The notes beneath the pieces are model-generated. The model made no database searches. It was not told the origin of the DNA and was given only the letters and a program-made list of their open reading frames with translations. Below, piece by piece: positions 815 to 54,538 of a stretch of 64,000 nt of DNA. The translations under genes were made by a program, and so were the position numbers. The stretch's first letter is position 1. Each line of letters starts with the position of its first letter. The stretch is from an uncultured Veillonellaceae bacterium (GTDB taxonomy: Bacteria; Bacillota; Negativicutes; JARBTT01): contig CAWDTA010000002.1 of assembly GCA_963805085.1 (NCBI GenBank), forward strand, positions 1,472,001 to 1,536,000, read 5' to 3'.

Positions 815-970
815 AAATAGAATATAATCACTAAAAAGGAAACTCCTGCTGAATTCTGTATAAATTTGGCAGGAGTTTTGAGGTTTCATGAGAATATGTA
901 ATTTTAATACCAAAAAGCGATGGTAAGGTGACGGAAGAGGAACGTCCCTGAGTGTCCTCTGAGTGTCCGT
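815..970 (+). repeat. Dispersed repeat copy A (short form)
   Basis: aaatagaatataa...aactcctgctgaattctgtataaatttggcaggagtt...gagaatatgt...ggtgacggaagaggaacgtccc plus a tandem ctgagtgtcc tail. Confidence 0.95.
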
Positions 971-980
971 AAGATATACA

Positions 981-2348
981 TTAGAGTGATGGTTTCTCCG
1001 ATTTTACGGCACTTTTAACACCATAAGGATCAAAAATCCTAAATGGATCATAATTAGGCATTGCAAATTTAAGTGGATTCGTTTTACTATAATATAGCCA
1101 ATCTTCTTTGGTATTAATTGCTGCATAGTCTATAGATTCGTTCTGTGGTTGAGTGCTGATGGGGACAATATCACATTCATAAAACGTTGCATCCGTTCGT
1201 TTTAAAGTCAAATGTAAAATTGGCCGTTTCATATCCATTTTTATCATATCTTCAAATTCATATAAGTGCAGAGTGTTTGTTTGGATACCATTAATTGAAA
1301 TAATTTGATCACCTGGTTTTACAGCAATAAGTGTTGGTATTTGTTCTGTACTTACCTTCTGAACTGTAAATGGGCCTTTGCTCCAACTTTCATTTGCATC
1401 CAAATATTTTTTTCGAAGATTGAGTCCATAATCATTGAGTCCATAAAAACCTTCGTAGGTTTGATCAATGAGTTTTTTTGTATCTAATAAATATTTATCA
1501 AATTTATCTGGTTTTTTGTCATTAGATAATGTAAACGATAATGGTATATAGTCGGTGCCACTAGAAACGTACATACCAGTCCATGAATCTTTACGAGTAT
1601 GCTCATAGATTAGCCAAGCACGATAATTCAGCCAAGTACCTTCTGATGTTTCAATAAAATCACAGAAATTAAGCACGTCGCTGTCATCACCTCTAAAGCC
1701 AATAGACTTGTTTACATCATCTCTGGCATAACGATTATATCCGTAATAGCCACTCATTACTTTTTTTATGTCATAGTGATAGTTTAAATTATAGCAAAAA
1801 GCATCTTTTATCTGAGAGTATGTTTTGTTTGGAAAAAACAGTTGATAAGTCGGTATATCATAAGCAATGGCTGGATATGTATGCGCTTTTTCTACTGGAA
1901 TTTTCCCGATTTTAACAAATTCCTCTGGTATGATCCTACAGCGTGATTTTATATTTTTCTTGTCAGATATTTTTAATTCATATTCCAATTTCTGTTTTGA
2001 ATTTAGTCCCTGCCAATCAGATTCATTATAAACATACCATTTATCAATAGAGTTACTTGTCGTAGCGTTTTTTCTTAGAGCAGGATCTTTTATTTCTGTC
2101 AGTGGAATTTTCGTTGTTTTATCAACAATAATATTTGCTTCTAAGATATCTGGCACATTTTTATTAATGTGAAGTACTGTATAGTCTTTTTCTTTCGTGA
2201 AAACATGTTGAATTTCTAAGTAGTCGTCTTGAGTAAAATATACTGTTGTACCATTTGTTTGGTCTACCTTGTAAATTGTTGCTTGACAACTACCGATATT
2301 TACTAAGAAAAAAAACAAAATTATCAATAACTTGTGCATCCATGTCAT
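981..2348 (-). CDS. Secreted hypothetical protein with C-terminal PDZ-like domain
   Basis: Signal peptide; VKPGDQIISING PDZ motif; GAGGA RBS. Confidence 0.75.
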   Translation of the reverse strand: MTWMHKLLIILFFFLVNIGSCQATIYKVDQTNGTTVYFTQDDYLEIQHVFTKEKDYTVLHINKNVPDILEANIIVDKTTKIPLTEIKDPALRKNATTSNSIDKWYVYNESDWQGLNSKQKLEYELKISDKKNIKSRCRIIPEEFVKIGKIPVEKAHTYPAIAYDIPTYQLFFPNKTYSQIKDAFCYNLNYHYDIKKVMSGYYGYNRYARDDVNKSIGFRGDDSDVLNFCDFIETSEGTWLNYRAWLIYEHTRKDSWTGMYVSSGTDYIPLSFTLSNDKKPDKFDKYLLDTKKLIDQTYEGFYGLNDYGLNLRKKYLDANESWSKGPFTVQKVSTEQIPTLIAVKPGDQIISINGIQTNTLHLYEFEDMIKMDMKRPILHLTLKRTDATFYECDIVPISTQPQNESIDYAAINTKEDWLYYSKTNPLKFAMPNYDPFRIFDPYGVKSAVKSEKPSL

Positions 2349-2545
2349 GAAATTTTCCTCCTAAATTATGTTGTTATATTTTATCCTTGCTAATTGTAGC
2401 ATAATTTACCAATACTAAGCAATTTAGTTAAAAGAGATTTATAAAGCAATTAAGACGTTTTTGCAAATGCAGAACGGGCAATCAAGCTCCATCACGATAA
2501 AGAATTAGGTGCTTTTTCACCATTCTGCCGTTCCCTTGTCGCATG

Positions 2546-2761
2546 TAAAACACCAAAAAGGAAACTCCTGCTGAATTCTGTATGAATTTGGCAGGAGTTT
2601 TGAGCTTTTATGAGAATATGTAAATTTAATATCAAAAAGTTGATGGCAAGGTTGAGGCGGGCGAAGTGGCGGAGGTAGTGTCTTAGAGGAAAGCAATAAG
2701 ACGAAATCACCGTCCCCAGTCGTTCAAGAATAGTGGGACAGGGAACCTGTCCCCTTGTCCC
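2546..2761 (+). repeat. Dispersed repeat copy B (long form)
   Basis: Same core hairpin and promoter; ends gggacagggaacctgtccccttgtccc. Confidence 0.95.
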
Positions 2762-2890
2762 TATAGAAAAATTTTCTGAATTCATGAAAAGAATGACAGT
2801 AGGGACGTTTCTTTATTTTCAATATCATTACTGATTTCATATTTATGAACCTATAATAAACCATTGAAAAAGGTCTATAGGAATACCATT

Positions 2891-3037
2891 AAATAGAATA
2901 TAAACACTAAAAAGGAAACTCCTGCTGAATTCTGTATGAATTTGGCAGGAGTTTTGAGGTTTCATGAGAATATGTAGGTTTAGTATCAAAATGTCGATGG
3001 CAGGGTGACTGAAAATGAACGTCCATCGTTTGTCCGT
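2891..3037 (+). repeat. Dispersed repeat copy C (short form)
   Basis: Near-identical core to copy A. Confidence 0.95.
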
Positions 3038-3064
3038 AATAATTAATTATGGGGTGAGGGTATC

Positions 3065-3565
3065 ATGAAAGTATCATTAAGGGCATTAGCTATTGATGAT
3101 TTTCAAGTTTTAGAACAATGGTATGAACAAATTAACGGAGCAACATATACATCGCGATATGGGCCTAAAAAATTTAATGGAATTGATACAAGTATAAGTG
3201 AAAAATATACTTGGTATATTATCAAGGTTAATGAAATCGACTGTGGAGTAATATGGCTTGAAAAAGAAGAAAAGAATAATGATATAGCTATTCTTGGGAT
3301 AATGATAGGTAAAGAAGATTATTTTGGGAAAGGTATTGGAAAAGAAGCAATAAGTTTAGCTATTAATCAATCAAGGAAAGACCTTAAATTTAATAAAGTT
3401 TGCCTAAATGTGAGAAAAACAAATATTAGAGCAATCAGATGTTATACTAAGTATGGCTTTTGCATTAGTGGTGAAGGTGAAAAAATTGGCAGTGAAGAAC
3501 AGAAGATAGAATTTTTCAGTATGATTTTAGATGTAGAAAAAGTGCAGCGTGAAGTATTCTTTTGA
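3065..3565 (+). CDS. GNAT N-acetyltransferase (RimJ/RimL-like)
   Basis: GKGIGKEA acetyl-CoA motif A; NIRAIRCYTKYGF motif B. Confidence 0.9.
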   Translation: MKVSLRALAIDDFQVLEQWYEQINGATYTSRYGPKKFNGIDTSISEKYTWYIIKVNEIDCGVIWLEKEEKNNDIAILGIMIGKEDYFGKGIGKEAISLAINQSRKDLKFNKVCLNVRKTNIRAIRCYTKYGFCISGEGEKIGSEEQKIEFFSMILDVEKVQREVFF

Positions 3566-3584
3566 CTACACAATAATGCCGCTG

Positions 3585-3750
3585 AATAGAATATAAACAG
3601 TAAAGAGAAAGCTCCTGCTGAATTCTGTATGAATTTGGCAGGAGTTTTGAGCGTTTATGAGAATATGTAAATTTAATATCAAAAAGTTGATGGCAAGGTG
3701 ACGGAAAAGAAACGTCCCTGAGTGTCTCCTGAGTGTCTCTGATTGCCTCC
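3585..3750 (+). repeat. Dispersed repeat copy D (short form)
   Basis: Core hairpin; ends gaaacgtccctgagtgtctcctgagtgtctct. Confidence 0.95.
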
Positions 3751-3789
3751 AAAAATTAAAGCCCTGGGTGCAGTCAGAGAATAGGTGGG

Positions 3790-4296
3790 TTATTTCTTGA
3801 ATTCGATATTTTGCATGATGTAGGAGAATTCGGCAAGGGTGGTTTCGTACTGAGATTCTTTTGGCGCACTGAATAGAAAATAGCGAAAGTCGGCTCCGTC
3901 AATTGCAAGCATAGAATATATGCGCTTATCATTATTCGGATACATCACGACTGCAGTTAACCAAAAGGCTTGGTGATTATTCACTTGTAGATTTTTGCAA
4001 GTTCTAATTCGAGCGTTGAGGCTTGTGATGTAAGAGTTTTTGGTTTTGAGCAAACAGTCATCTAAACTACCTTCTTTGGGGATAACAGTCAAGTTTATAT
4101 CTGGTGATTTATGATTTTGCATAGTGAATAGGTAAAGAAAGCCCGTAGGAATATCATTTTTATAAGGAATAGCTTCTTGAGTGAACTCAATTTTTATAAA
4201 TTCGTCTTCGTATACCTTTATCTGCTGAGGCTCTGCAGCATACACTGATGTTACGGCAAACATTATTGATACGAGTGATAATAAGATTCGGTGCAT
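3790..4296 (-). CDS. Secreted hypothetical protein (possibly PsbP/DcrB-like fold)
   Basis: Start reassigned to ATG 4296 after AGGAGG; signal peptide MHRILLSLVSIMFAVTSVYA. Confidence 0.7.
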   Translation of the reverse strand: MHRILLSLVSIMFAVTSVYAAEPQQIKVYEDEFIKIEFTQEAIPYKNDIPTGFLYLFTMQNHKSPDINLTVIPKEGSLDDCLLKTKNSYITSLNARIRTCKNLQVNNHQAFWLTAVVMYPNNDKRIYSMLAIDGADFRYFLFSAPKESQYETTLAEFSYIMQNIEFKK

Positions 4297-4455
4297 TAGG
4301 GACCTCCTGTTTATTTCGCAATTTTGATACTGACAATAATCTTTTTCTATTATAAGGTAATTTAAGCGGGATGGGAAGGTATAAGAAGATAATGGCAAAG
4401 GAATAGAAAAAATGTCACTATCTGTAGGAGAATCGATAGTTAAGGGGGAGCATTA

Positions 4456-5019
4456 ATGCCAAGAATCTTTGGGGAAAGAATAATATTGCGAGAATATAAA
4501 AAAGAAGATTTGCTATATATGCGAAAATGGGTTAATGACCCAGAAATAGTAGATAATTTATCTGACGTATTTTTACATGCTAATACAATAAATGAAACGG
4601 AAAACTTTCTGAACAGTATACTTGAGGGGAAAAATAATCAACAAAAAAATTTTGTTATTGCTGATAAACAAACTGAAGAATATATTGGGCAAATTGATTT
4701 AATTAATATTGATTGGAAAAATCGTGTTGCTGAAATGGGTATCGTTATTGGCAATAAAGATTTACTAGGAAAAGGGATTGGAACAGAGGCTATCAAGTTA
4801 TTACAAGCTTTCGTTTTTGAGAGATTAAATATGAATCGGTTAGAATTAAATTTGCATGATTATAATGAAAGAGCTTATAAATGTTATTTGAAATGCGGCT
4901 TTGTGGAAGAAGGACGACTACGGAAAAAATTTTTTATTAATGGTCAATATACCGATGTTATTCTGATGGGAATACTTCGTGATGAGTATAATAGGGGGAG
5001 TAAAATATCAAGTATATGA
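4456..5019 (+). CDS. GNAT N-acetyltransferase (RimJ/RimL/SpeG-like)
   Basis: GKGIGTEA; NERAYKCYLKCGFVEEGRLR. Confidence 0.92.
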   Translation: MPRIFGERIILREYKKEDLLYMRKWVNDPEIVDNLSDVFLHANTINETENFLNSILEGKNNQQKNFVIADKQTEEYIGQIDLINIDWKNRVAEMGIVIGNKDLLGKGIGTEAIKLLQAFVFERLNMNRLELNLHDYNERAYKCYLKCGFVEEGRLRKKFFINGQYTDVILMGILRDEYNRGSKISSI

Positions 5020-5101
5020 TCAAAGAAGGCTTTAAAAGTATTGCAATAAGGCAATACTGGATAAAAAATTATAGACAAAAGTTTGAACAAATATTGACAA
5101 A

Positions 5102-5222
5102 TAAAATATAAACTCCTGCTGAATTCTGTATGAATTTGGCAGGAATTTTGAGCTTTCATGAGAATATGTAAGTTTACTAGTTGAAAAATTATGGTAAGTT
5201 GACGGAAAAGAAATCTTTCCGC
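5102..5222 (+). repeat. Dispersed repeat copy E
   Basis: aactcctgctgaattctgtatgaatttggcaggaattttgagctttcatgagaatatgt. Confidence 0.9.
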
Positions 5223-5245
5223 CTTCTATGGGGGAATAGAACTTT

Positions 5246-6451
5246 ATGAATAATATTAAGGCTGTATTTTTTGATTTTGATAATACAATAGTAGATTATG
5301 TAAAATCAGATATAGACAGTCTGAGGATGGTAGCAGAATCTTTGCCAATTACAGTAGACACAAATGTTTTCATTGACATTGCTGTTGAGCAAATTATGAA
5401 GTTTCATGGCTTGGTTAGTGATGGTAAAGTGGAGCCTAGTGATATACATAATTATCGTTTTTATAACACCATGAAGTATTTTTCTGTTGAATTGAAAACA
5501 AAATATTTAGATATTTATTTGCAACATTTCATAAAATCTACAATTTGTTTTTCGGGAGTAGAAGAAGTAATAAGATATTTGTATGGTAAGGTTAGATTGG
5601 GAATAGTAACCAATGCCTATAATTCGGAAGAACAAAAACGAAGAGTTGACAATACAGGGATAACAGGGTATTTTGATGATATTGTTGTATGTGCAGATAT
5701 CGGAGCCTATAAACCAACCAAAGAGGCATTTCTTTATTTGGTTGATAAGTACCGCTTGAAGCCGTTTGATTGTTTATATATTGGTGATTCGGAAGAATAT
5801 GATATAAAAGGGGCTAGAAATGCTGGTTTATATACAATAAAGATGGCTCATAATTCATCAAAAATAAATTCAGTAGCAGATTTTGTTTGTGATGATTTTC
5901 AGGATTTATTTAAATTATTCTTGGAAAAATTAGTGGTAAAGAATAATGTGGGAATTGATGGGGATATTTCCTACAAAGAATGTGCACAAGATGTAGCTCT
6001 TGCAGATGTAAGTAAACATACGATGCAGCTTATCTGGTTTCTGAATAATGATGATCGTTTACTTGATCATTTTGGTTCTAATAGCTCAGTTAAGATAACT
6101 GAACAAGAATTTTTAGAAACCAATAGAAAATGGATTGTCGAAAATTATGCGGATATGTTTGCTATCGTCTTAGGGAAAAAAGCAATAGGGATTATATCTT
6201 TAAGTCACAAGGATACTATCAACCATACAGCACGAATTGGTTATTGGCTCGGGAGTGCTTATTGGAATAAGGGATGCGGAAGTAGGGCTTTTAAACTTAT
6301 GCTTAGCGAAGCAAAGAATAGAGGCTTTAAATATGTATCTTCTACGATTAGAAAAGACAATGTAGCATCTATAAAGATATGGGACAAATATGGCGCACAA
6401 ATCATATCTAGTAATGGTAGATATTCGTGTGTTATCAACCTTGAAAATTAA
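5246..6451 (+). CDS. HAD-family hydrolase fused to a C-terminal GNAT domain
   Basis: FDFDNT motif I, KP, IGDSEEYDI motif IV; C-terminal IGYWLGSAYWNKGCG GNAT. Confidence 0.85.
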   Translation: MNNIKAVFFDFDNTIVDYVKSDIDSLRMVAESLPITVDTNVFIDIAVEQIMKFHGLVSDGKVEPSDIHNYRFYNTMKYFSVELKTKYLDIYLQHFIKSTICFSGVEEVIRYLYGKVRLGIVTNAYNSEEQKRRVDNTGITGYFDDIVVCADIGAYKPTKEAFLYLVDKYRLKPFDCLYIGDSEEYDIKGARNAGLYTIKMAHNSSKINSVADFVCDDFQDLFKLFLEKLVVKNNVGIDGDISYKECAQDVALADVSKHTMQLIWFLNNDDRLLDHFGSNSSVKITEQEFLETNRKWIVENYADMFAIVLGKKAIGIISLSHKDTINHTARIGYWLGSAYWNKGCGSRAFKLMLSEAKNRGFKYVSSTIRKDNVASIKIWDKYGAQIISSNGRYSCVINLEN

Positions 6452-6475
6452 ATATCGCAGTAGAAACTGTTATGT

Positions 6476-6527: not shown

Positions 6528-6625
6528 AGAGTTCTGAGCCTTTATGAGAATATGTAGGTTTAGTATCAAAAAGTTGATGGTAGGGTGACGGAAAAGGAAC
6601 GTCCCCGACTGTCCGACTGTCGTCC
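6528..6625 (+). repeat. Dispersed repeat copy F (5'-truncated)
   Basis: tttatgagaatatgtaggtttagtatcaaaaagttgatggtagggtgacggaaaaggaacgtcccc plus tandem gactgtc. Confidence 0.9.
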
Positions 6626-38481: not shown

Positions 38482-40081
38482 CAATGTCATTAAGTTAAGT
38501 AATTAAGAGCAGGTTAATGTATCAAAAAATGGTGAACGCTATGATAAGTGTTCACCATTTTTATGATTTAAACATACCAAAAGCAGATGACGTTATAAGC
38601 CATCTGTACAACATGCAGATATGAAGAGTTGTTGTTAAGAAATTCTATATGCAAACCCGACAGCCTTTTTAATATTTTGATATCTTTCAAATACTCTGCC
38701 AGGACGTATTGGAGACATAAATTTTTGCACAATTTTCAAAAGACTTCTTTCAGAAATTTTGCCTTTAAAATACTGATAACAAAAATGTATCGCTCTAGCG
38801 AAATTGATTCTTTTATCTTTTGGATGTTCTACTTGATAAGATATTAAAGCTGGAAAATTGTACATAATTAACTTTGAAAAAATTTCTTGAAGTACAAAAT
38901 CTTGCTTTTTACTATGAATGCTGGCTAATCCAACATCATATTTTAATTCTTTGAATGAAGTTTCGATACCCCATCGCATTTTATATAGTTCTTTCAAAAC
39001 TTCAGCAGGAAATTCATTCGCAGGTAAATTTGTGAATAACGTTTCATAAGTGGTATCTGAAATTTTAAATCGAACAATTCTAAATTTCAAATCATACATC
39101 TCATTTTCTCTAGACAGTAAGTAATCAAACGTTGTATGAGGTTGAATCCAACGATATCTATCAGGATTTTCTTTAATCAATGCTATTGTATCTTTCGTTT
39201 TTCTCCGAGTAAGGGTGATGGTGGTTTCTTTATCGAATTCATCACTATCAGGATTTTCATATTTAATACCGTAGGATTCTTTCGAACGTATAATATAATT
39301 CCAATTCTTTTCTTGAAAATGAGCAATATTATTAAAAGATTCGTATCCTCTATCAGCTATAACAATAACACTTCCAGTTGCTTCAGATTTTTCAATCATT
39401 GATACCAGAGCCTTATGTTCATTCATACCTTTTTTACTTTGTATTGAAGCGTCAACATAATTATGTCGCATCAAATCATACATAGCATCAAGATGAAGAA
39501 GATTATATCCTTTAGTATTATCATCATTTTTGATATGAGAATTATCGTCATTTTTATTTTTAGGTAATCTTATATCAGACCCATCTACAGCAAGAAGACG
39601 ATATCCTTTAAATAAAATCCGCTCGTCACATTGTTTAACCATTTCTCTAAAAATATATTCCATAGCTTTAGATGAAATTTTATTCCTTTGTTGAACAAAG
39701 GCAGAAACAGATGCGGTATCTTCTGCATAATTGAACCAATCATATATTTCTTTACATAAGCTATTTCCGCCCATGCCAATCATCATTTTAATAATTGTTT
39801 CAAATGATAGTTTTCGATTCCTTGTAAAGTCCTTTGATGGATTTTGCAAAAAATCAGATGGATCATCTGATATAGTACTTATTATGTGTGAAAGTATTTC
39901 TTTTACTTCAGTTGGTTTCATATGTGTTCCTCCCTAGAAACTTTATATTTCAAGGGCGGAGCCGCAAATTTTCGACTATTTGTCAAGTGTTTTTTTATAT
40001 GACTAGCAAATATAAAAATAGAATGTTTACATCTACTTTTATCGATGTAAACATTCTATTTTGCTTAACTTAATGACATTG
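38482..40081 (-). mobile_element. Complete IS4-family element
   Basis: 18-bp IR caatgtcattaagttaag/cttaacttaatgacattg; 10-bp TSD acttgacggg at 38472-38481 and 40082-40091. Confidence 0.92.
38635..39921 (-). CDS. IS4-family DDE transposase
   Basis: LAVDGS, IADRGY, YKMRWGIETSFKELK (YREK). Confidence 0.93.
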   Translation of the reverse strand: MKPTEVKEILSHIISTISDDPSDFLQNPSKDFTRNRKLSFETIIKMMIGMGGNSLCKEIYDWFNYAEDTASVSAFVQQRNKISSKAMEYIFREMVKQCDERILFKGYRLLAVDGSDIRLPKNKNDDNSHIKNDDNTKGYNLLHLDAMYDLMRHNYVDASIQSKKGMNEHKALVSMIEKSEATGSVIVIADRGYESFNNIAHFQEKNWNYIIRSKESYGIKYENPDSDEFDKETTITLTRRKTKDTIALIKENPDRYRWIQPHTTFDYLLSRENEMYDLKFRIVRFKISDTTYETLFTNLPANEFPAEVLKELYKMRWGIETSFKELKYDVGLASIHSKKQDFVLQEIFSKLIMYNFPALISYQVEHPKDKRINFARAIHFCYQYFKGKISERSLLKIVQKFMSPIRPGRVFERYQNIKKAVGFAYRIS

Positions 40082-40423: not shown

Positions 40424-40520
40424 GTATAAAATTAAAAAAACCATGTTAAATTATGTATAACTTGGCAGGAATTTTAATTTTTGACTAGAATATGTAGGAC
40501 AGAAGGGACGTCAGACTGTC
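40424..40520 (+). repeat. Dispersed repeat copy G (diverged)
   Basis: aaattatgtataacttggcaggaattttaatttttgactagaatatgt keeps GCAGGA-17-GAAT. Confidence 0.75.
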
Positions 40521-40757: not shown

Positions 40758-42041
40758 ATGTTTGATAGATTCTGGAAAAAGACTACCGATATAACTAAAT
40801 TAGAATCATATAGAGCGAACTCACCGTGGAAGCACGATGCAGTTCTTTTGCATGTAACTAACAGACTTGGGCATTTACGTATGGCCTATGGAATGGCGAA
40901 AAATAATAAACAAAAATTCTTTATGCTATTAAAAGATATTCCGTTAGTGAAGTGGCATTGTATTGATGAATATAACTGCCCCACATGTGAAAAACTCATA
41001 TCCGCTGGTTATGGGTTAAATAACATAAATGAAGAGGTTATTAGTGAAATCAGAAGGTGCATGAACCAATCCCATGAAACGATTGATTTAGCAGTAGATA
41101 ATTTAGTACCTATACTAAAGCTTTTACCCAGTGGATATTATGTAGTAGCCGATTTACCTCTGTATCCGTCTGATGGAAATGGACAATTTTTTTGGAATCA
41201 AAGCAATCAACCAGCCTTTAATAAAGGAACCTGCTCAATTTATTATAAACAAATGTATTCGCAAGGGATGCCTACTTTTATCCTGCCAAGCCAACTGCCT
41301 GAAAGTTATGATGCAGCGACAATGAAGCGGTATCAGGAAATGTATCGAGCTGGGGAATCATTAAGAGGATTGGCTTATTATATGGGGGATTATCTCTGTA
41401 CCCTACTGGATGGGCATCATAAGGCAGTGGCAGCAGCTTTGGAAGGACGAGAATTTCGTTGTTTAACAATCTTGCCAGTACATGGTATTTCATGCTTGAA
41501 AGATGAAAAAGATTTTAAAATGTCAATTGGCGGTGAATGGATTGATTCAAAAAATCTTCCGACAAAATTTAATAAACACTTCAAGAAATCATATGGTCAA
41601 GCGAATAAATTAAAAACTGACGAAGTTGAAAAATATCTAACTATGGAAGCGGAATGTTGGGCGCAGTTTAAATGGCCACAAGAATTATTAGATATTGGGA
41701 AGCAATACCCCGACGCATTTACGGTGGCTTGTATAGAGTTTTCTGGAGATTTATCGGACGAACGTGTTTATAGACTTCTTCGGAATGAAGAAGCTGATGC
41801 CGAGGATAAACTAGAGTTTGTTTTTAAGTCTCTTGTTGGCTTAAAAGACATCCGGGCCGCAGAAATAGCAATGAAAATTGCCAAGGATGAAGGATTACGC
41901 AATCTATGGCAAGAGGTTTTTGAATATTTGGCTACTGTCCAAAGTGAACAAATAGAGGATTTCTTTATTGACTTTCTAGTTAATGATGAAAAACTGCGAC
42001 CGAAACTTACGAAAATAGCGGATAACTATTTAAAACACTAA
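40758..42041 (+). CDS. Hypothetical protein (CPTC and LLDGHHK motifs)
   Basis: 427-aa ORF; ParB/Srx-like DGHH motif; stop codon lies inside repeat copy H. Confidence 0.7.
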   Translation: MFDRFWKKTTDITKLESYRANSPWKHDAVLLHVTNRLGHLRMAYGMAKNNKQKFFMLLKDIPLVKWHCIDEYNCPTCEKLISAGYGLNNINEEVISEIRRCMNQSHETIDLAVDNLVPILKLLPSGYYVVADLPLYPSDGNGQFFWNQSNQPAFNKGTCSIYYKQMYSQGMPTFILPSQLPESYDAATMKRYQEMYRAGESLRGLAYYMGDYLCTLLDGHHKAVAAALEGREFRCLTILPVHGISCLKDEKDFKMSIGGEWIDSKNLPTKFNKHFKKSYGQANKLKTDEVEKYLTMEAECWAQFKWPQELLDIGKQYPDAFTVACIEFSGDLSDERVYRLLRNEEADAEDKLEFVFKSLVGLKDIRAAEIAMKIAKDEGLRNLWQEVFEYLATVQSEQIEDFFIDFLVNDEKLRPKLTKIADNYLKH

Positions 42042-42246
42042 AAAGGAAACTCCTGCTGAATTCTGTATGAATTTGGCAGGAGTTTTGAGCTTTTATGAGA
42101 ATATGTAAGTTTAATGTGAAAAAGTTGATGGCAAGGTTGAGGAAGGCGAAGTGGCGGAGGTATTGTCTTAGGAAAAAGCAACAAGACGAAATCACCGTCC
42201 ACAGTCGTTCGAAAATAGTGGGACAGGGAACCTGTCCCCTTGTCCC
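42031..42246 (+). repeat. Dispersed repeat copy H (long form)
   Basis: Near-identical to copy B. Confidence 0.95.
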
Positions 42247-42764: not shown

Positions 42765-44033
42765 TTACCCAGCAATTCTATCTGAAAATAAGATGTTTAA
42801 CTGGTCTAAAACCATATCCCAGTTTCGACATCTTTGCGTCCATCTTTCGACGATTTTCTTTGATGCCAAATATAATATTTTTCTTAAGCTATCGTCATTC
42901 GGAAACGATGGCTTATTTTTTGTTATTTGCCTAAACTGCCGATTCAGTCCTTCAATTATGTTAGTCGTATATATTATTCTTCGTATCTCTGGTGGATATG
43001 CATAAAACGCCGATAATATATCCCAATTTTCTTCCCAACTCTTTATGCACGATGGATACGCTTTTACCCATTTTTCTTTGAATTCCATTAGGTGATTTAA
43101 TGCTTCCTCTTCTGTTACAGATTGATACACTTGCTTTAAATCAACCATCAATTCTTTGATGTCTTTATAGCTTACATATCTTGTACTAGAACGTATTTGG
43201 TGGATAATACAGCGTTGTATTTGTGCTTTTGGATAGGTTGCATTAATTGCTTCTTTAAATCCTTTTAAACCATCTACGCAAAATAGATAAACATCAAGTA
43301 TACCGCGGCTTTTTAGGTCATTTAAGACACCTAGCCAAAACTTACTGCTTTCATGTTCACCTATCCAAATACCTAAAATATCTTTACTTCCATCTAGCGT
43401 AATACCAAGAACAACATAGGCAGCTTTTGTTACGATTTGGTGGTTTTCTTTAATTTTATAATGTATGGCATCCATGAAGATAAAGGGGTAAATTGCTTCA
43501 AGTGGTCTGGCTTGCCAAGCGTTTACATCCGGCATGATTTTTTCACTGATTTTACTTACAAGTTCAGGGGAAATTTCTACATCGTAGAGAATTTTAATTT
43601 GTTCAGCAATATCTCTTTGACTCATACCACAGGCATAAAGAGAGAGTATTTTTTCTTCCATTCCATCGGCATTACGATTGTATTTAGCAATGATTTGCGG
43701 TTCATATTCACCGTTGCGATCACGAGGAATCTTAACGTCGATTTCACCAAGCTGAGTTTTAACAGTCTTTTTAGAATAACCATTACGATAATTTTGTGAC
43801 TTTGATAAATCGACAGAATCGTCCAGATGTTTACTTTTTTCGTAACCAAGTTCTTGATCTAACTCAGATTCCATAACTTGCTGGATAACGTCTTTGAACA
43901 TATCTTTCATGGCTTGCATAATCTCAGTAGTAGAGGTGAAATTTTGGCTTTGTACATACTCTTTCATTAGATCTTTAGGTGCAGTTAACATAGAAAAAAA
44001 CTTCCTTCCAGGTTTGAATTTCTTATATTCCAA
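42765..44033 (-). CDS. IS256-family transposase
   Basis: RNGYSKK, PRDRNG, FMDAI, VDGLKGF, QRCIIH, YTTNIIEGLNRQFR; left IR GAGACTTCATAAAATTTTGTGTAAAA ends at 44088. Confidence 0.95.
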   Translation of the reverse strand: MEYKKFKPGRKFFSMLTAPKDLMKEYVQSQNFTSTTEIMQAMKDMFKDVIQQVMESELDQELGYEKSKHLDDSVDLSKSQNYRNGYSKKTVKTQLGEIDVKIPRDRNGEYEPQIIAKYNRNADGMEEKILSLYACGMSQRDIAEQIKILYDVEISPELVSKISEKIMPDVNAWQARPLEAIYPFIFMDAIHYKIKENHQIVTKAAYVVLGITLDGSKDILGIWIGEHESSKFWLGVLNDLKSRGILDVYLFCVDGLKGFKEAINATYPKAQIQRCIIHQIRSSTRYVSYKDIKELMVDLKQVYQSVTEEEALNHLMEFKEKWVKAYPSCIKSWEENWDILSAFYAYPPEIRRIIYTTNIIEGLNRQFRQITKNKPSFPNDDSLRKILYLASKKIVERWTQRCRNWDMVLDQLNILFSDRIAG

Positions 44034-44156
44034 TTCTTACCTATCGGGAAGTTTTTTATTCTTTTTACACAAAATTTTATGAAGTCTCATCTTTTTGTCA
44101 ATGGACATCTGATTTCCTCATTATGGATCGTTAATAAAGAATTAGTACCAATCGCT

Positions 44157-44255
44157 AAATAGAATATAAACAGTAAAAGGAAACTCCTACTGAATTCTGT
44201 ATGAATTTGGAAGGAGTTTCCTTTTATGAGAATATGTAAGTTTAGTATCAAAAAG
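44157..44255 (+). repeat. Dispersed repeat copy I (3'-truncated)
   Basis: aaatagaatataaacagtaaaaggaaactcctactgaattctgtatgaatttggaaggagtt. Confidence 0.9.
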
Positions 44256-44292
44256 AAACTTCTTATATAGCCTTTGAATTTTTCTTTTCCTC

Positions 44293-45108: not shown

Positions 45109-45339
45109 TATTAACCCCCATTTTATCATTATCAGTCTAAAAACTTCGCTATTAATATTAGAAAAACCTTTTATTGACAATAGAAATTAACTTTTTATCA
45201 ATGTTTTTTAATCAACAAAACAAAAAAATCTTTAGTAAAATCAGTGTTAGGTGGGATCGATGGTGGAGAAGTATAGTTGAGATTTGTGTTCTGCTAGTTC
45301 CAAGCTATGTGCGTTACTGAAATATAAGGCGATAAAGGT

Positions 45340-45553
45340 AAATGGAACATAAACACTAAAAAGGAAACTCCTGCTGAATTCTGTATGAATTTGGCGGGAA
45401 TTTTGAGGTTTTATAAGAATATGTAAATTTAATATTAAAAAGTTGATGGCAGGTTGAGGAGGGCGAAGTGGTGGAGGTAGCGTCTTAGGAAAAAGTAACA
45501 AGACGAAATCATCGTCACGGCCATTAAAAAATGGTGGGACAGGGAACCTGTCC
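45340..45553 (+). repeat. Dispersed repeat copy J (long form, REP end split by IS1182; remainder at 47216-47234)
   Basis: Core plus gggacagggaacctgtcc|IS|gaacctgtccccttgtccc. Confidence 0.93.
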
Positions 45554-47215
45554 GAAACCACTGAAAAATGACCATTTTTTAAGTCACTAGAATATTTTTA
45601 TATTTTATAATTCTTTGATGGACATTATTTTTCAAAATTCGGAGTAAATATTCGAAGAAAAAGGATACTAGAGCTGCTATCCTTTTCAAGTTCACTGCCA
45701 AAGCTGTAAGCTTGGCTTGCAGACTCATACTTTTTAGACCATACCCTCGGGCACGGTCTAATCCATGAAAGCGTTTCATTTCTCCATTTTTCCATTCATG
45801 GCTGGCACGTTTTTTATATTTTTCCTTAAATTCGGGTGTCTTTGCCCGTTGATTATGTTCATAATAGTCAGCTGTATTAATTCCAACATCTAAACGTTTT
45901 ACAGATGCTTTTTTGCCAGCACATTCTACTCTATTGGGACAATCTTTACACATAACCTTATTAAATTTATACTTTAGAATTTCTTGCCCCCAGCTACTTT
46001 TCCCATGTTTTTTTGTTATCGTATGATTTCCCATTATACAAAACCACTGATCACTATCCTTGTTATAACTGAATTTACTCTCGTCAATTTTGTATACTGA
46101 CGCACTTACGGGTATAATTGGCTCCACATTGTCTGCCTTTAAAATATCAAGTATCGGTTTACGAAAATACGCTTTGTCACCATAGGCTTCTTTTATATTA
46201 ATTCCACATTCTTTACTTCGATTATATAATTCGCCAAACTTATTTCCATCTACATAAGCACCATCACACGTTTCTATAGCCATAATAATACGTTCTTCTG
46301 GTATCATTGTAAATTCAACTTTATAACCATAAAAACTATCCGTTTTTGATTTATACCCTACACGAGCGTCTTTATCAACAAGTGAGCGTAAGCCTTTTTG
46401 TATGATAAACTTTTCATCGCTTAGTATCTCTTTTGCTTGGACTATCGCTTTTGAAGTTTTTGGCATGGTCGAGATATCAACGTTATTTTCGACTTCTGTC
46501 ATCATGCTTTCCAAAAAAGTTTTCATCATTTCCTTAGCTTCTTTATGATCCACTATTCCCTTATAATCGGGGATAGTGGTATTTATCTCAGGCGATATTT
46601 CTCCTGATTCTTCTTTTATATTTTTAAATATTTTCTTGGCCAAATGTTTCATAATCCGTTCTGGGACTAGCTTCATTGTATTGGCTTTTGCATGAGTGGC
46701 GTCAATTGTTAATCCTGTCCCTTTAATAAGGCCATTTTCGATACATTGGTGTACGACTTCCGTAATAATATTATCAACACTAGTATCTTTGAGTCGCTGT
46801 GTTCTGAATTTTGCAAGTAAGCTTGCATCAGGTAAATCTTCATCTGGGTTGATACCAATAAACCACATATATGCAAGATTCAAAGAGGCTTCTTCTATGA
46901 CTTTTACATCTGATAAATTATACAAATATTGCAATATGAGAAGTTTCGCCATCATTTCAGGTTCCTTTGCTGGACGACCAAAATGCTTGCTGTAGGAGCC
47001 TTCAAGTAATTTATTTATAAAACTGAAATCTACTACTTTATCTATGCTTTTAAGTAAGTGATCATCGGGTATTTTATCATATAAAATTGAATATAAACTT
47101 AATTGTTTCGATGTAGATTTAAGCATACTAAACCCCACTTTCTCAATATATACAATATCTTTATTATACCAAAAATGGGGTATATTTGATATAGTTTGAC
47201 TTTTTCAGTGGTTTC
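45554..47215 (-). mobile_element. Complete IS1182-family element
   Basis: IR gaaaccactgaaaaa/tttttcagtggtttc; TSD gaacctgtcc. Confidence 0.9.
45579..47138 (-). CDS. IS1182-family transposase
   Basis: GRPAKEPEMM, IDATH, GDKAY, CKDCPNRVEC, YKKRASHEWKNGEMKRFHGL. Confidence 0.9.
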   Translation of the reverse strand: MGFSMLKSTSKQLSLYSILYDKIPDDHLLKSIDKVVDFSFINKLLEGSYSKHFGRPAKEPEMMAKLLILQYLYNLSDVKVIEEASLNLAYMWFIGINPDEDLPDASLLAKFRTQRLKDTSVDNIITEVVHQCIENGLIKGTGLTIDATHAKANTMKLVPERIMKHLAKKIFKNIKEESGEISPEINTTIPDYKGIVDHKEAKEMMKTFLESMMTEVENNVDISTMPKTSKAIVQAKEILSDEKFIIQKGLRSLVDKDARVGYKSKTDSFYGYKVEFTMIPEERIIMAIETCDGAYVDGNKFGELYNRSKECGINIKEAYGDKAYFRKPILDILKADNVEPIIPVSASVYKIDESKFSYNKDSDQWFCIMGNHTITKKHGKSSWGQEILKYKFNKVMCKDCPNRVECAGKKASVKRLDVGINTADYYEHNQRAKTPEFKEKYKKRASHEWKNGEMKRFHGLDRARGYGLKSMSLQAKLTALAVNLKRIAALVSFFFEYLLRILKNNVHQRIIKYKNILVT

Positions 47216-47293
47216 GAACCTGTCCCCTTGTCCCATTTATTGGATATGAACGGTTCCTCGTACAGAGTAAATCATGCTATTGCTAACGATTAG

Positions 47294-49076: not shown

Positions 49077-49094
49077 CGGAAGGGAGGAGCGTAG

Positions 49095-49409
49095 ATGAAG
49101 ATTGTAGGGGTTGCGGCTTGTACAGCGGGGATTGCTCATACATATATTGCCGCAGAAAAGCTGAGAAAGGGCGCAATGGCGCGGGGGCATGAGGTGCATG
49201 TTGAAACGCAGGGGACGATTGGCGTTGAAAATGAGCTTTCACAGGAACAGATTGATGTGGCGGATTTGGTGATTTTGGCAGTCGATATCAAGATAAACGG
49301 TGAAGAGAGGTTTTCGGGTAAACGTATTGTTCGTGTGAAAACGGCGACTGTGATCAAATCGCCAGTGCAGTTTATGGAGAAAGTAGAAGCGGAGCTTGCG
49401 AAAAACTAA
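49095..49409 (+). CDS. PTS fructose-family IIB component
   Basis: ACTAGIAHTY, VETQG. Confidence 0.93.
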   Translation: MKIVGVAACTAGIAHTYIAAEKLRKGAMARGHEVHVETQGTIGVENELSQEQIDVADLVILAVDIKINGEERFSGKRIVRVKTATVIKSPVQFMEKVEAELAKN

Positions 49410-49436
49410 GAACTAAAGAGGATGAGGTGAAGAAAA

Positions 49437-50534: not shown

Positions 50535-50571
50535 TATTGGTTAAATAAAATAGAGTAAAAAGAGGAGTGGT

Positions 50572-51438: not shown

Positions 51439-51451
51439 GGAGGGAAAATGA

Positions 51452-51994
51452 ATGCCTAATTTGATCTTGAAGGAAGAAGTCGAGGGATTATTTAAAAAAG
51501 CGCATATTGCTTTGACGGCAGAAGAAAAGGAACGATTAGAGTTTACTGATTTTGGCTTTGGTATAGGAAATGTCAGAAAAGAAGGGCTACAGCTTATTGT
51601 TTATTGTAATAATGAACGTTACTGTGCCAAGGATATGGCTCTCTTGCCAAATCAAACCTGTCCAGAACATCGTCATCCGCCAAAGAAAAATGATGCAGAG
51701 GGCAAGATGGAAACGTTTCGTTGTCGTTATGGCAGAGTGTATCTTTATGTAGAAGGGAATGTGACAGAAGGTATATCGGCAGATGTTCCTGAGAAACATA
51801 AAAAATGGTATACGGTAAGACATGAAATTGTTTTGCACGCAGGACAGCAGTATACGATTCCACCGAATACACGTCATTGGTTTCAGGCAGGAGGTAAGGG
51901 GGCAATTGTAAGTGAGTTTTCTTCCCCAAGCGATGATGCTTCGGATATATTTACAAATCCGAAAATACGGCGTGTGGCAGTGGATCGAGTGTAG
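51452..51994 (+). CDS. D-lyxose/D-mannose-family sugar isomerase (cupin)
   Basis: QTCPEHRHP, GKMETFRCR, HWFQAG, SEFSS. Confidence 0.88.
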   Translation: MPNLILKEEVEGLFKKAHIALTAEEKERLEFTDFGFGIGNVRKEGLQLIVYCNNERYCAKDMALLPNQTCPEHRHPPKKNDAEGKMETFRCRYGRVYLYVEGNVTEGISADVPEKHKKWYTVRHEIVLHAGQQYTIPPNTRHWFQAGGKGAIVSEFSSPSDDASDIFTNPKIRRVAVDRV

Positions 51995-52006
51995 AAGCCT
52001 AAGAGG

Positions 52007-52050
52007 TAATAAATCAGGAGCTGTGCATTTGCATAGCTCCTGATTTATTA
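52007..52050 (+). terminator. Intrinsic terminator
   Basis: taataaatcaggagct...agctcctgatttatta. Confidence 0.75.
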
Positions 52051-52177
52051 AAGTAGATGGTATGATTATTTGCTCTTATTGGGACTATATTCCTGTTTAT
52101 TGTTTATTTTACAGGAATTTGATTTTTTTCCTTGAATATCAGTTTTTAGAACAAATTATACAATAGGAGTGAAGTAA

Positions 52178-53767
52178 TTGAATTTTCAATTGAAGACAAG
52201 GATTGTCACAGGATTCATAGCAATCATAATAACATTTTGCAGTGTGGTTTACGCCAGCGAGCCAACCGAAAAAGAAACGAAGACGGTGTCTGTTGTCACC
52301 GCTGATACCACACAAAAACAAGTGGTAAGTGAAGTGAAAAAATCTGGCAAATACGGTTACATTGATCAAACTGGGGCTTTCGTCATACCAGCTGAGTTTA
52401 ATCAACTAACTTTATTTAAAGCGCAAGGTCTCATTTTGGCAAAGCAAAAAGGAAAATATGGCGTGTTTGACCAGAATGGGAAAAGCATACTTCCCGTAGT
52501 ATTTGATGATGTAACGATTCATGAAGATAATACCATTTCAGTGAAGCAAAAAGATAAATGGGGTATTTACGATAATCAAAGCAACGTGATTTTGCCTATA
52601 GAATTTGATGAGTTGACTACTTTTTCTTCTGGTTTAGTAGCAGCAAAAAAAGATAAACTTTGGCGCTATTACGATAAATCAGGTAAAGCTGTCTTGGAAG
52701 AGGCCTTTGATGGTGCTAATAATTTTTCCGAAGGGCTTGCACTTGTAATGCATGATAATAAGTGTGGATATATAGATATCCAAGGAAAAGTCGTGATTCC
52801 TTATCAATATAAAAATGCAGCGGATTTTTCTGAGGGGCTGGCAGCAGTAAGAACAAAAGATAAGTGGGGTTTTATCGACAAAACAGGGAAAGTTGTTATT
52901 GAAGAAAAATTCAACGGATATGAAGCCGCTTTTAAAGAAGGGCTTGCGATTGTAAATCAAACAAGCAAACATGATTATATTGATATAAATGGTAATATTG
53001 TTTTTAGTGCACCTTATGATTTTGTCTTCCAATTTGAAGATGGTCTCGCAGAGGTTCGTGTAGAAAAAAGTAGTTTTTCTTGGGGCGGCTTTGTAAGTAC
53101 TGCGATTTCGGCAACGCTTGGTGGCTATTCAGATCCCGCAGATAACAATTTAGTGGAGTTCAATCTTAAACGTGGTTTTATCGACAAGACAGGGAAGCAG
53201 GTTATTACAACAAAGTATGATTTAGTCAATGTATTTAAAGATGGTTTATCTAAGGTTATTGACCATGGTAAAACTGGTTATGTAAATCGTAAAGGGGAAT
53301 TTGTGATTCCCGCAGAATATCAAGGTCTATCTGATTTTGAAGATGGTCTAGCTATGGATAAAAAAGATGATAAATGGGGCTATATTGACAAGAGTAATCA
53401 GCCTTTAACTACTCTAAAGTTTGATGAAGTAAAAGCCTTTAGTTGTGACAGGGGAGCAGTGAAGCTTGGCGAAAAGTGGGGGTTCATCGATCGTACAGGG
53501 AACCTTGTAATTAGAGCCAAGTTTAATGATGTTAAACCGTTTGTCGATAATAGCGCTGTCGTAAAATACATCGACGCTTGGGGGATCATTGATTTATCTG
53601 GTAATTATATGATTCCTGCAAAATCGGGTTATGAAGAAATGACTGTGTTCAATCACGATTTTATCGGCATTAAAGTAAATGGTAAATGGGGCTTTATGAA
53701 TAAAGATGGACGCATTATTGTTGAACCACAATACGATACAATATGCCCGATTTCTTCCTTAAAATAA
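52178..53767 (+). CDS. Secreted WG/KWG-repeat protein
   Basis: Signal peptide; many KWGFIDKTG / FSEGLA repeats; upstream SigH-like CAGGA-17-GAAT at about 52112-52137. Confidence 0.9.
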   Translation: MNFQLKTRIVTGFIAIIITFCSVVYASEPTEKETKTVSVVTADTTQKQVVSEVKKSGKYGYIDQTGAFVIPAEFNQLTLFKAQGLILAKQKGKYGVFDQNGKSILPVVFDDVTIHEDNTISVKQKDKWGIYDNQSNVILPIEFDELTTFSSGLVAAKKDKLWRYYDKSGKAVLEEAFDGANNFSEGLALVMHDNKCGYIDIQGKVVIPYQYKNAADFSEGLAAVRTKDKWGFIDKTGKVVIEEKFNGYEAAFKEGLAIVNQTSKHDYIDINGNIVFSAPYDFVFQFEDGLAEVRVEKSSFSWGGFVSTAISATLGGYSDPADNNLVEFNLKRGFIDKTGKQVITTKYDLVNVFKDGLSKVIDHGKTGYVNRKGEFVIPAEYQGLSDFEDGLAMDKKDDKWGYIDKSNQPLTTLKFDEVKAFSCDRGAVKLGEKWGFIDRTGNLVIRAKFNDVKPFVDNSAVVKYIDAWGIIDLSGNYMIPAKSGYEEMTVFNHDFIGIKVNGKWGFMNKDGRIIVEPQYDTICPISSLK

Positions 53768-53783
53768 TAATTTAGATTCATTC

Positions 53784-53830
53784 AAACAGAGAAATCCCAG
53801 CCTTTAAATAGGCTGGGATTTCTCTGTTTT
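53784..53830 (+). terminator. Intrinsic terminator
   Basis: aaacagagaaatcccagcct...aggctgggatttctctgttt. Confidence 0.8.
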
Positions 53831-53881
53831 GATCTTGATGGCTTTAAAATGAAGCAAAAAAGATGAGAGGATGAATGATGC

Positions 53882-54338
53882 ATGAATTTTGGAGAGCCCT
53901 TAAATGAGAATTTAGTAAATTTAGAGTTGCAAGCTAAGTTGAAAGTGGAATCGATACTGGAGTTGATAGACCTGCTGTATCAAGAGGGGAAAGGCAATGA
54001 TCGTGATCTGTTTTTGTAGGATTTGTATGAGCGGGAAGCAGAGGGGCGGACGGGGATTGGTAATCTCGTGTGTTGATTCGGTATTGTAAGTCGGATGCGG
54101 TGGCAGTGACTTCGATTGTGATTGGACGGAGTGAGTGGGGTTTAATGTGGTATTCTCTCGATGGCAAGCTAGTTCATATCGTGATTTTGTTTGCGATGAG
54201 CAACAAAGATAAAACGAATTTGAATTTGGGCCTGTCGGGGCAGGGGTTACGAATGATTTAGCGGATGAGCGAATACTGGAGTGATTGCTCTTAACCGAGG
54301 ATAAAAAAGAAGTCATTTCGCTGTTAGCGGGAGAATGA
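53882..54338 (+). pseudogene. Degenerate duplicate of the PTS IIA gene
   Basis: Colinear with 48621-49076 (e.g. aagtcggatgcggtggcagtgacttcgatt, ggataaaaaagaagtcatt) with stops and frameshifts. Confidence 0.85.
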
Positions 54339-54361
54339 ATAAAGAATACTGGCATTATCGT

Positions 54362-54538
54362 AAATAGAATATAAAAGTAAAAAGAAATTCATAATAAATT
54401 ATGTATAATTTAGCAGGAATTATAATATTTTACTAGAATATGTAAAATTAATATTAAAAGGATGACGGCAGATTGAGGAGGGCGAAGGCATTGTCTTAGA
54501 AAAAAGCCAACGAGACGAAGACAACGTCCCCTTATCAT
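54362..54538 (+). repeat. Dispersed repeat copy K (diverged), upstream of the bacimethrin genes
   Basis: aaatagaatataaa...gcaggaattataatattttactagaatatgt...ggcgaag...gtcttag...gacgaa...aacgtcccc. Confidence 0.85.

Follow-up and report, generated by a model that had tools for sequence, protein, structure and literature searches.

The window analysed here, a stretch of 64,000 nucleotides (nt) at positions 1472001-1536000 of contig C2 of genome G000 (uncultured Veillonellaceae bacterium; 4.21 Mb, 5 contigs, 37% G+C), contains many copies of a repeat that separates unrelated genes. The tails of these copies derive from the terminal inverted repeats (TIRs) of Y1/HUH elements of the TIRYT or "TIRtron" class resident in the same genome. 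All copies follow the direction of replication, and most are confined to one locus that varies between relatives with breakpoints at the repeats. We slightly favor, at a probability of about 0.55, the reading that the repeat is a non-autonomous, TIRYT-derived mosaic resembling miniature inverted-repeat transposable elements (MITEs) and bacterial interspersed mosaic elements (BIMEs), which acts as a terminator-promoter module and as a breakpoint for the turnover of gene cassettes.

According to this reading, the tails, and in some copies the 5' end too, would be TIRs of the genome's own Y1/HUH TIRtrons. Through a terminator hairpin overlapped by an outward promoter of the sigma-70 type, each copy would terminate transcription arriving from upstream and initiate the next transcript downstream. 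Insertion or retention of copies would have been limited to the orientation of replication, as for the Y1 genes and as expected of strand-specific, single-strand HUH transposition, and the copies would have piled up in one insertion-tolerant, hypervariable accessory locus by local hopping or by insertion tolerance; under the main rival explanation, new cassettes would instead have come in by recombination with repeats already in place. There, recombination within or at the repeats may add, remove and re-order blocks consisting of a promoter half, a tail, one or more genes and a terminator half. We infer that a TIRYT moves the element in trans; either choice of driver for the shuffling, RecA or HUH, is likewise inferred.

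Anatomy of the repeat and origin of its tails

Alignments of the copies showed a mosaic unit of 100-330 nt, composed of an optional 5' extension, box 1 (TAAATAGAATATAAAC), a hairpin, box 2 (TATGAGAATATGTAAGTTTAATATCAAAAAG) and a tail. The conserved core of about 105 nt meets the tail at the junction ...AAAAAGTTGA / TGGCAAGG.... The hairpin consists of AAAAAGG, a stem of 15-18 bp with the loop (C/T)TGTATG, and then TTTTGAGCTTTT. The original prediction, made from the letters of the window without database searches, had assigned the repeat a sharp 5' edge, which did not hold: at least 12 copies extend 75-125 nt upstream, 6 of 67 reach a left inverted repeat (GGACAGAAGGGACGCTTATTTTTTGTCA) that opens the extension, and copies B and H (window copies are lettered A to K; Table 1) start after box 1.

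The lower stem of the hairpin covaries across copies (CACC/GGTG, CAAC/GTTG, TGCC/GGCG, CTAC/GTAG), and the upper stem and loop are conserved in sequence. The + strand fold was the more stable in 49 of 56 copies, with a mean folding energy of -21.3 kcal/mol as against -16.4 kcal/mol for the - strand, in agreement with the predicted + strand preference from two G-T wobbles. With its runs of A and T, the hairpin is read as a predicted bidirectional intrinsic terminator, and a terminator scan called it in copy B. The same scan placed a promoter-like site (TTGGCA, 18 nt, GAGAAT) in copies A-E, with the -35 hexamer in the right hairpin arm and the -10 hexamer in box 2; the diverged copies G and K keep the hexamers (TAGAAT) and the spacing, with a changed spacer sequence. 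Promoter-like boxes lie on either side of the hairpin. The promoter half is retained in 4 copies without a left arm, and likeness breaks in the loop (model position ~41) in 4 copies (C2:1426583, C2:1455702, C4:329752 and C5:65166). Among downstream + strand genes, 11 of 32 start no more than 35 nt from the end of the copy. Judged by these consensus-level signals, the module may function as promoter and terminator.

A full copy compared by blastn with a plasmid collection gave no match. The exact 29-nt hairpin pattern occurred at only four loci in a collection of species genomes, in Propionispora, two Sporomusa and one Pelosinus metagenome-assembled genome. The Pelosinus locus is a complete mosaic element, and the other three share the hairpin alone. 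In these three (Propionispora, Sporomusa malonica and S. aerivorans; L001-L003), the exact 29-nt hairpin is joined to a conserved 3' flank of its own, GTAGTTTCAGCCGGAAAA..., and the rest of the element is absent. The hairpin may be an older, separately conserved module.

RAYT-type genes (those of REP-associated tyrosine transposases, REP being the repetitive extragenic palindromic sequence) are usually single-copy, and the load in this genome is unusually high. Proteins of about 250 amino acids (aa) with a Y1/HUH domain fall into several families, and Y1_Tnp (PF01797) gave 24 matches in the genome, near-identical multi-copy sets among them. The type 2 protein scored 53.6 bits on PF01797 and 75.6 bits on NF047646 (REP_Tyr_transpos), just below the cut-off of 80. 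The motifs NHVHIL and YIHQNP are visible in the Y1 protein sequence, and a C-terminal extension of about 110 aa ends in ...LSIREIERATGISRGIV; Pfam at E up to 0.01 gave Y1_Tnp alone. Papers on the TIRYT or "TIRtron" class describe a TIR motif GGGGWSAS, "TIR families in dimers or clusters" and, for subclass 2.1, a C-terminal helix-turn-helix (PMC3733652, PMC6006769). At least five families of TIRYT-like Y1 genes of about 250 aa were present (e.g., C2:238565, 248640 and 1948687), together with 5 identical copies of a classical IS200. The resident IS200 was considered as a parent of the repeat and rejected, as the ends of its five copies are unrelated to it.

Inverted pairs surround type 1 genes at C2:248k, 548k, 553k and 801k and at C3:14.5k, and carry GGGGACAG, which fits GGGGWSAS; those around type 2 genes at C2:1948k, 1951k and 2044k carry GGGGACGT, one position off that motif. 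Type 1 elements carry GGGACAAGGGGACAGG...CTGTCCC at one flank and GGGACAG...CCTGTCCCCTTGTCCC at the opposite one; for type 2 elements the two sequences are GACAGAAGGGACGTTCCTTTTTTGACA and AAAAGTTGACGAAAAAGGAACGTCCCC(TAGTGTCC)n. Both 3' ends named in the original prediction, GGAACGTCCC and GGGACAGGGAACCTGTCCC, were confirmed. The short-form tail, ...AAAAGTTGA..CGGAAAAGGAACGTCCCC(nnTGTCC)n, is the type 2 right end, including the last codons of the gene, its stop and the 8-nt tandem units. The long-form tail, ...AATAGTGGGACAGGGAACCTGTCCCCTTGTCCC, has a type-4-like TIR pair within it and terminates in the right end of type 1. The left repeat of the six copies mentioned above is the type 2 left end, and the fullest units (e.g., window 2796-3057) are about 300 nt long with terminal inverted repeats of about 28 bp.

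A right TIR2-like tail was present in approximately 23-26 of the 67 copies, the higher figure including about 3 long forms whose span reached a neighboring copy; a right TIR1 was present in 6 of 67, and a left TIR2-like end in only 6 of 67. Of 15 exact genomic occurrences of GGAACGTCCC, 6 fall in the array and the other 9 lie at or close to type 2 elements; the type 1 hairpin gave 33 matches (up to 3 mismatches), mostly beside Y1 genes or in the array. The predicted link to RAYT proteins therefore stands as far as the tails are concerned, although the MARLRRAK reading offered for it is only loosely like TIRYT N-termini. An intact Y1/HUH gene between core and tail, which that link had led the prediction to seek, was not found in G000, nor was one found after the core. 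In another genome, G027, the sole core seen beside a TIRYT abuts, with its TIR tail, a 5'-truncated TIRYT gene with an internal TGA, indicating that such fusions do arise.

A 1.75-kb segment flanked by TIR2 (C2:2047.5-2049.3k) was examined as a cargo-carrying TIRtron and proved to be a frameshifted insertion sequence (IS) of the DDE type, IS1182-like by its likeness to the window element only.

Number, orientation and clustering of the copies

The 15-nt left hairpin arm gave 20 matches with up to 3 mismatches against 2.56 expected from shuffles, and repeat finding in the window grouped 9 copies together. A profile built from 7 window copies returned, with an E cut-off of 1e-3, 66 matches from the whole genome, including one palindromic echo. 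A second, longer profile, on which the genome-wide counts are based, returned 67 copies: 57 on C2 (all +), 6 on C5 (all +) and 4 on C4 (all -). The array, C2:1,382,324-1,526,487, holds 53 of the 67 in 144 kb, i.e., 79% of the copies in 3.4% of the genome, and 57 copies lie within 228 kb. Of the eleven + strand copies originally described, A-F and H-K were significant profile matches and G was only a weak, diverged one. The extent of more than 60 kb first proposed for a co-oriented, repeat-delimited array was borne out and proved far too small.

Cumulative GC skew placed the origin near C2:820 kb, with the + strand leading on C2 beyond 820 kb and on C5, and the - strand leading on C4; the array lies ~0.56-0.7 Mb from the skew minimum. 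When profile strands were compared with the skew, 67 of 67 copies followed the direction of replication. Of 2408 long open reading frames (ORFs) in the whole genome, 1991 (83%) are encoded by the leading strand; the array has 107 ORFs, 68 on the + strand (64%) and 39 on the - strand. As 21 of the 53 array copies precede a minus-strand gene, gene orientation does not account for the co-orientation of the repeats. Y1_Tnp matches are oriented with replication as well (24 of 24), like the repeat. What had been taken for a property of the array is thus linked to replication throughout the genome and shared with the Y1 genes. IS200/IS605 elements transpose as single strands on the lagging-strand template and are strictly co-oriented with replication, and by analogy the orientation seen here fits such HUH transposition.

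Repeat DNA and TIRYT protein were both searched for in 41 genomes. A TIRYT match was present in 12 of 14 genomes with the repeat and in 7 of 27 without it, a co-occurrence that is descriptive only, the query being part TIR and the relatives non-independent.

Several results weigh against the TIRYT-derived mosaic. With a left inverted repeat in just 6 of 67 copies, movement from TIR to TIR as one unit would be impossible for most of them, and the core is unlike the interior of every TIRtron in this genome. Neither a target-site signature nor a series of empty sites nor an excision product was observed. The concentration of 79% of the copies in 3.4% of the genome is atypical for REPINs or MITEs, and such extreme clustering needs the extra assumption of local hopping or insertion tolerance. 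A TIRYT fragment at C2:712995-713552 (+), found by protein search in addition to the 24 matches, opposes replication. Genome G004 has about 11 copies with RE2-like tails, yet its best relative of the type 2 TIRYT is only 40% identical, so a cognate transposase is not always present. Finally, the promoter and terminator are predictions only, at the level of consensus.

Variation between relatives and competing explanations

Two relatives were compared with G000: G001, of the same genus (~95% nucleotide identity), and G004, of another family. The flanks of the locus are syntenic in G004 (G000 1371860-1394336 with G004 2503247-2517555, and G000 1582130-1594677 with G004 2622586-2633637). The interior, 105 kb in G004 versus 188 kb in G000, shares scattered genes only, in changed order, and the G004 locus carries 11 + strand copies. 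A gene for a 427-aa protein, 91% identical in nucleotide sequence between the two genomes, stands in different array contexts; its homology runs from 17 nt before the ATG to the TAA, with a repeat tail preceding it in G004 and copy H following it in G000. Its stop codon had been thought to come from copy H. Since its G004 orthologue stops at this TAA too, although no repeat follows there, the stop is the gene's own.

On one 9-kb contig of G001, five of five rearrangement joints relative to G000 fell at repeats or TIR remnants, as anticipated for a comparison of strains. At one joint a core is present that is absent in G000, with the tail retained. At another the tail type and two genes are swapped exactly at the core/tail junction, and at a further joint a moved gene retains the 5' half of its downstream repeat, the break following directly on the hairpin. 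Over 6.2 kb, a second G001 contig matches the left edge of the array collinearly, and the locus is therefore not wholly in flux. Contigs from 4 other DNA runs held the same cassettes, including those of copies C-F, at ~85-99% identity in other arrangements, with repeats at many-fold higher summed depth than cassettes. Likeness in these contigs often ends at box 1 and after ...ATCAAAAAG, and two GNAT genes are joined there with 42 nt between them and no repeat. Scatter in both orientations among syntenic, invariant genes, which would have marked an ordinary MITE, was not what we observed: the copies are co-oriented and the locus varies between relatives.

The genes between copies are unrelated and in either orientation, as originally described. 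A scan of 106 array proteins gave 114 Pfam families, and the content includes GNATs, regulators of the HxlR, LysR, AraC and PadR families, aldehyde dehydrogenases, phenolic acid decarboxylases, FMN reductases and transposases. A segment comprising one repeat and 535 further nt is duplicated on C4 at 98.8% identity.

A stronger form of the TIRYT hypothesis would make the locus a working cassette exchange system of Negativicutes built on HUH chemistry and not on an integrase, a functional analogue of the integron in a phylum without integrons and the first cellular role of a TIRYT. The top strand would be cleaved by TIRYT nucleases at two kinds of site, the TIRs and the core/tail junction, and blocks of tail, gene(s) and core would be moved, swapped or captured in a replication-coupled, strand-specific manner, arriving with their terminator and promoter. 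We regard this form as unlikely.

Equally doubtful, in our judgment, is an explanation without transposition, in which the repeats, a shared terminator-promoter module, are portable homology for RecA-dependent recombination between direct repeats, cassettes made of a gene between two module halves are cut out, inserted and passed between cells in this way, inverted copies are harmful and the TIR tails are incidental insertions. It would produce breakpoints within the core such as those seen against G001, which follow the hairpin or lie where core meets tail, and the repeat downstream of gene D has an identical 5'-extension variant in G000 and G001. Repeat copies are 78-95% identical between G000 and G004, alongside the 91% of the 427-aa cassette gene and 63-86% for flanking core proteins, and clustering would be natural if cassettes enter only at existing repeats. 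It leaves unexplained, however, the replication-linked orientation of the 10 copies that lie beyond the array, on three contigs, and the fact that every tail is a TIRtron right end in a single orientation. Moreover, neither the precise presence or absence of a core beside a kept tail nor the 42-nt repeat-free join is a simple repeat-to-repeat crossover.

The original prediction of an integron-like capture and shuffling system was upheld as to a variable, co-oriented array; integron-like, site-specific capture is unsupported, and the analogy with integrons is valid for layout only, though the hairpin may still serve as a site at the DNA level. We consider it improbable that the hairpin is the core site of a site-specific recombinase, or a single-strand substrate, at which cassettes are captured. 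Its 15-nt inverted arms and 7-nt spacer do resemble recombinase core sites, the loop and upper stem are conserved above a covarying lower stem, the + strand folds better, and the array layout and accessory genes would fit. Four copies break likeness exactly in the loop, but retention of the promoter half, with its -35 hexamer in the right arm, explains these equally well, and most observed breakpoints lie outside the loop. The attC sites of integrons, at cassette 3' ends, are imperfectly palindromic, with extrahelical bases and a GTTRRRY crossover site. By inspection, the hairpin is a near-perfect stem of 15-18 bp without bulges, followed by TTTTGAG, with cassette genes on both strands, and repeats can be absent between cassettes. 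The predicted lack of an integrase was confirmed: Phage_integrase (PF00589) had 3 matches in the whole genome (C5:313 kb, C2:943 kb and C4:2.6 kb), none within 440 kb of the array, and serine recombinases had 2 (C2:200 kb and C5:703 kb), none near it. To our knowledge, Firmicutes are not integron hosts. A Xer/dif origin was rejected as well; to the eye, boxes 1 and 2 bear a loose resemblance to dif half-sites, but the array is not at the terminus and the arm matches are poor.

Sedentary chromosomal integrons and clusters of attC sites lacking integrases (CALINs) share with this locus a long array of co-oriented repeats alternating with unrelated accessory genes (GNATs, small unknowns) that varies between relatives. 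They differ in that the array here has no IntI, no attI and, by inspection, no obvious attC architecture, carries genes in both orientations and sometimes lacks repeats, and in that its repeat is a terminator-promoter module with transposon-end tails.

That the core serves mainly as RNA, whether as a small RNA gene or as a cis-regulatory leader common to a regulon, so that its repetition reflects regulation and not mobility, is very improbable: the covarying stem, the + strand folding bias and the promoter-like boxes flanking the hairpin would suit it, but Rfam at the gathering score placed no family on the repeat in the whole window (the sole pass being the FMN riboswitch of Table 1) and at E up to 1 gave a best repeat match, within 2480-3800, of 28.1 bits against a cut-off of 61.7, the downstream genes are unrelated and lie on the other strand after 21 of 53 copies, a box 1 transcript would comprise little beyond the terminator hairpin, and the TIR tails and presence/absence polymorphism point to dynamics at the level of DNA.

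The TIRYT-derived mosaic has relatives among known elements. TIRtrons (Di Nocera et al. 2013, PMC3733652; subclass 2.1 of Quentin et al. 2018, PMC6006769) likewise have Y1/HUH proteins of ~250 aa with flanking inverted repeats, and solo as well as clustered TIRs. Here, in contrast, the TIR is joined to a conserved core of ~105 nt with a predicted terminator and promoter, nearly all solo type 2 TIRs occur only joined to that core, the copies are locked to the strand set by replication and cluster mostly in one locus, and the TIRYT genes are multi-copy. The REPIN/RAYT systems and BIMEs of Proteobacteria are also non-coding intergenic repeats tied to a Y1 gene flanked by the same sequence, and BIMEs are mosaics of several motif types that receive IS insertions, as seen here for an IS110 in an RE2 tail and an IS1182-like element at an RE1 hairpin. 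REPINs, however, are short REP doublets scattered by the hundreds in both orientations with a single-copy RAYT, unlike the asymmetric repeat of 100-330 nt described here with its single orientation, clustering and multi-copy transposase genes.

IS200/IS605 elements and palindrome-associated transposable elements (PATEs) share Y1/HUH chemistry, co-orientation with replication, the absence of a visible target duplication and asymmetric ends; the ends here are inverted repeats, unlike the distinct subterminal hairpins of IS200/IS605, and the resident IS200 ends are unrelated. Correia/NEMIS elements of Neisseria and enterobacterial repetitive intergenic consensus (ERIC) sequences are MITE-like intergenic repeats that supply promoters and terminators to their neighbors, as this repeat would; they differ from it as symmetric TIR elements in both orientations, with TA duplication, scattered over the genome. 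We know of no link between them and HUH proteins.

TIRYTs, TIR families, BIME mosaics and regulatory MITEs are thus already known. The combination of a TIR fused to a terminator-promoter core, orientation with replication in every copy and confinement to one syntenic, rapidly shuffled locus was not found in the portions of the TIRYT/RAYT literature covered (PMC3733652, PMC6006769) or among the titles returned by literature searches; published lists of TIRYTs and their TIRs may already include these Negativicutes elements. Here the ends of TIRYT elements, fused to that module, mark nearly every joint of a 145-kb accessory locus that is reshuffled between genomes ~95% identical. If the link is causal, the locus would offer a tractable system, with defined substrates, a defined strand and natural variants, to test whether relatives of HUH enzymes drive gene turnover, and would show how diderm Firmicutes organize and express fast-changing accessory genes without integrons. 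If it is not causal, the repeat would still be a clear strand-locked regulatory MITE, useful for annotating these genomes.

Features of the window and insertion sequences

The copies and other features of the window are listed in Table 1. Two remnants had been noted beyond copies A-K. That near 410 is a real tail, but belongs to the copy at C2:1470703, from which an IS110 severed it; that near 62070 resembles a solo long-form tail, by eye only.

Table 1. Positions of repeat copies and other features in the window (nt)
Feature	Position	Strand	Details
RE2 tail of copy C2:1470703	409-438	+	core upstream of window, split off by IS110 of ~1.6 kb whose right part is window 1-412
Copy A, short form	734-976	+	231 bits; 5' extension, box 1 815-827, hairpin 840-878, promoter-like site 866-895, RE2-type tail 935-949, then TGAGTGTCC repeats
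Copy B, long form	2537-2761	+	no box 1; hairpin 2562-2600, promoter-like site 2588-2617; tail with type-4-like TIR pair, RE1 hairpin and CCTTGTCCC at 2735-2761
Copy C, most complete unit in window	2796-3057	+	226 bits; left TIR2-like GACAGTAGGGACGTTTCTTT ~2796-2815, 5' extension, box 1 2891, hairpin 2916-2954, RE2-like tail 3012-3026; ribosome-binding site and ATG (3065) of GNAT gene next
GNAT gene	3065-3565	+	cassette gene
Copy D, short form	3572-3740	+	hairpin 3609-3647, RE2 tail 3705-3719
Gene for 202-aa protein	3790-4398	-	cassette gene, no known family
GNAT gene	4456-5019	+	cassette gene
Copy E, short form	5066-5237	+	hairpin 5110-5148; degenerate tail
HAD-GNAT fusion gene	5246-6451	+	cassette gene
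Copy F, 3' half only	6529-6624	+	box 2 and RE2 tail 6592-6606; other sequence replaces hairpin
NRPS/PKS-type cluster	7453-36459	+	between F and G; preceded by alpha/beta hydrolase and methyltransferase
IS4-type element	38482-40081		inside array
Copy G, weak, diverged	40438-40520	+	E 1.9e-5 in window-only search; subfamily with K, 84% like K over 63 nt; TTGGCA, 18-nt spacer, TAGAAT, then GACAGAAGGGACGTC
Gene for 427-aa protein	40758-42041	+	cassette gene, no Pfam family
Copy H, long form	42034-42246	+	right after TAA of 427-aa gene; no box 1; hairpin 42047-42085, RE1 42220-42246
IS256/Mutator-type transposase gene	42765-44033		inside array
Copy I	44078-44258	+	5' extension, box 1, hairpin 44181-44219, box 2; no TIR tail
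Copy J, long form	45325-45527	+	RE1 hairpin cut by or abutting IS1182-like element
IS1182-like element	45528-47236		start approximate (~45528) at copy J
Gene for 529-aa protein	52178-53767	+	13 WG-containing beta repeats (PF14903)
Copy K, diverged long form	54337-54530	+	56.5 bits
Solo sequence like long-form tail	62050-62150	+	GGAGGTACTGTCT ... AAGACGAAACCAC; upstream of FMN riboswitch; by eye, no statistic
FMN riboswitch (RF00050)	62407-62534	+	117 bits
ORF of 204 aa	62631-63245		downstream of riboswitch

Insertion sequences were found at several repeats. An IS110 element with its transposase split into two ORFs occurs at C2:1470818-1472412 and C1:313547-315145. The insertion point within TIR sequence corresponds in the two copies, with GACAnAAA preceding it and AGGAACG or AGAACCG following, which suggests that the element may target TIRtron ends. 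The C1 copy is flanked by a direct duplication of ~175 nt. An apparent 1.6-kb cassette duplicated on C1 was rejected as such, being this same IS110 inserted in TIR sequences at both sites.

The IS1182-like element (DUF772 and DDE) is present in three copies that are 98-99% identical, the other two at C2:1395117-1396822 and C2:551172-552838. Each starts at the type 1 hairpin GGGACAG..CCTGTCCG, which is either its own end or its target. The IS4-type element is 99.8% identical to C4:320839-322438, and that C4 copy truncates a duplicated segment of repeat plus cassette that is 98.8% identical to C2:1454505-1455165.

The cluster of the nonribosomal peptide synthetase/polyketide synthase (NRPS/PKS) type inside the array comprises ORFs of 2155, 4953, 380, 414 and 957 aa with internal module repeats, and its last ~5.3 kb is 95% identical to C4:179109-184463. 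The gene for the 529-aa protein has a DNA periodicity of 306 nt, and its G004 counterpart is 66% identical. The riboswitch for flavin mononucleotide (FMN) lies upstream of the 204-aa ORF, with the solo tail-like sequence ~300 nt upstream.

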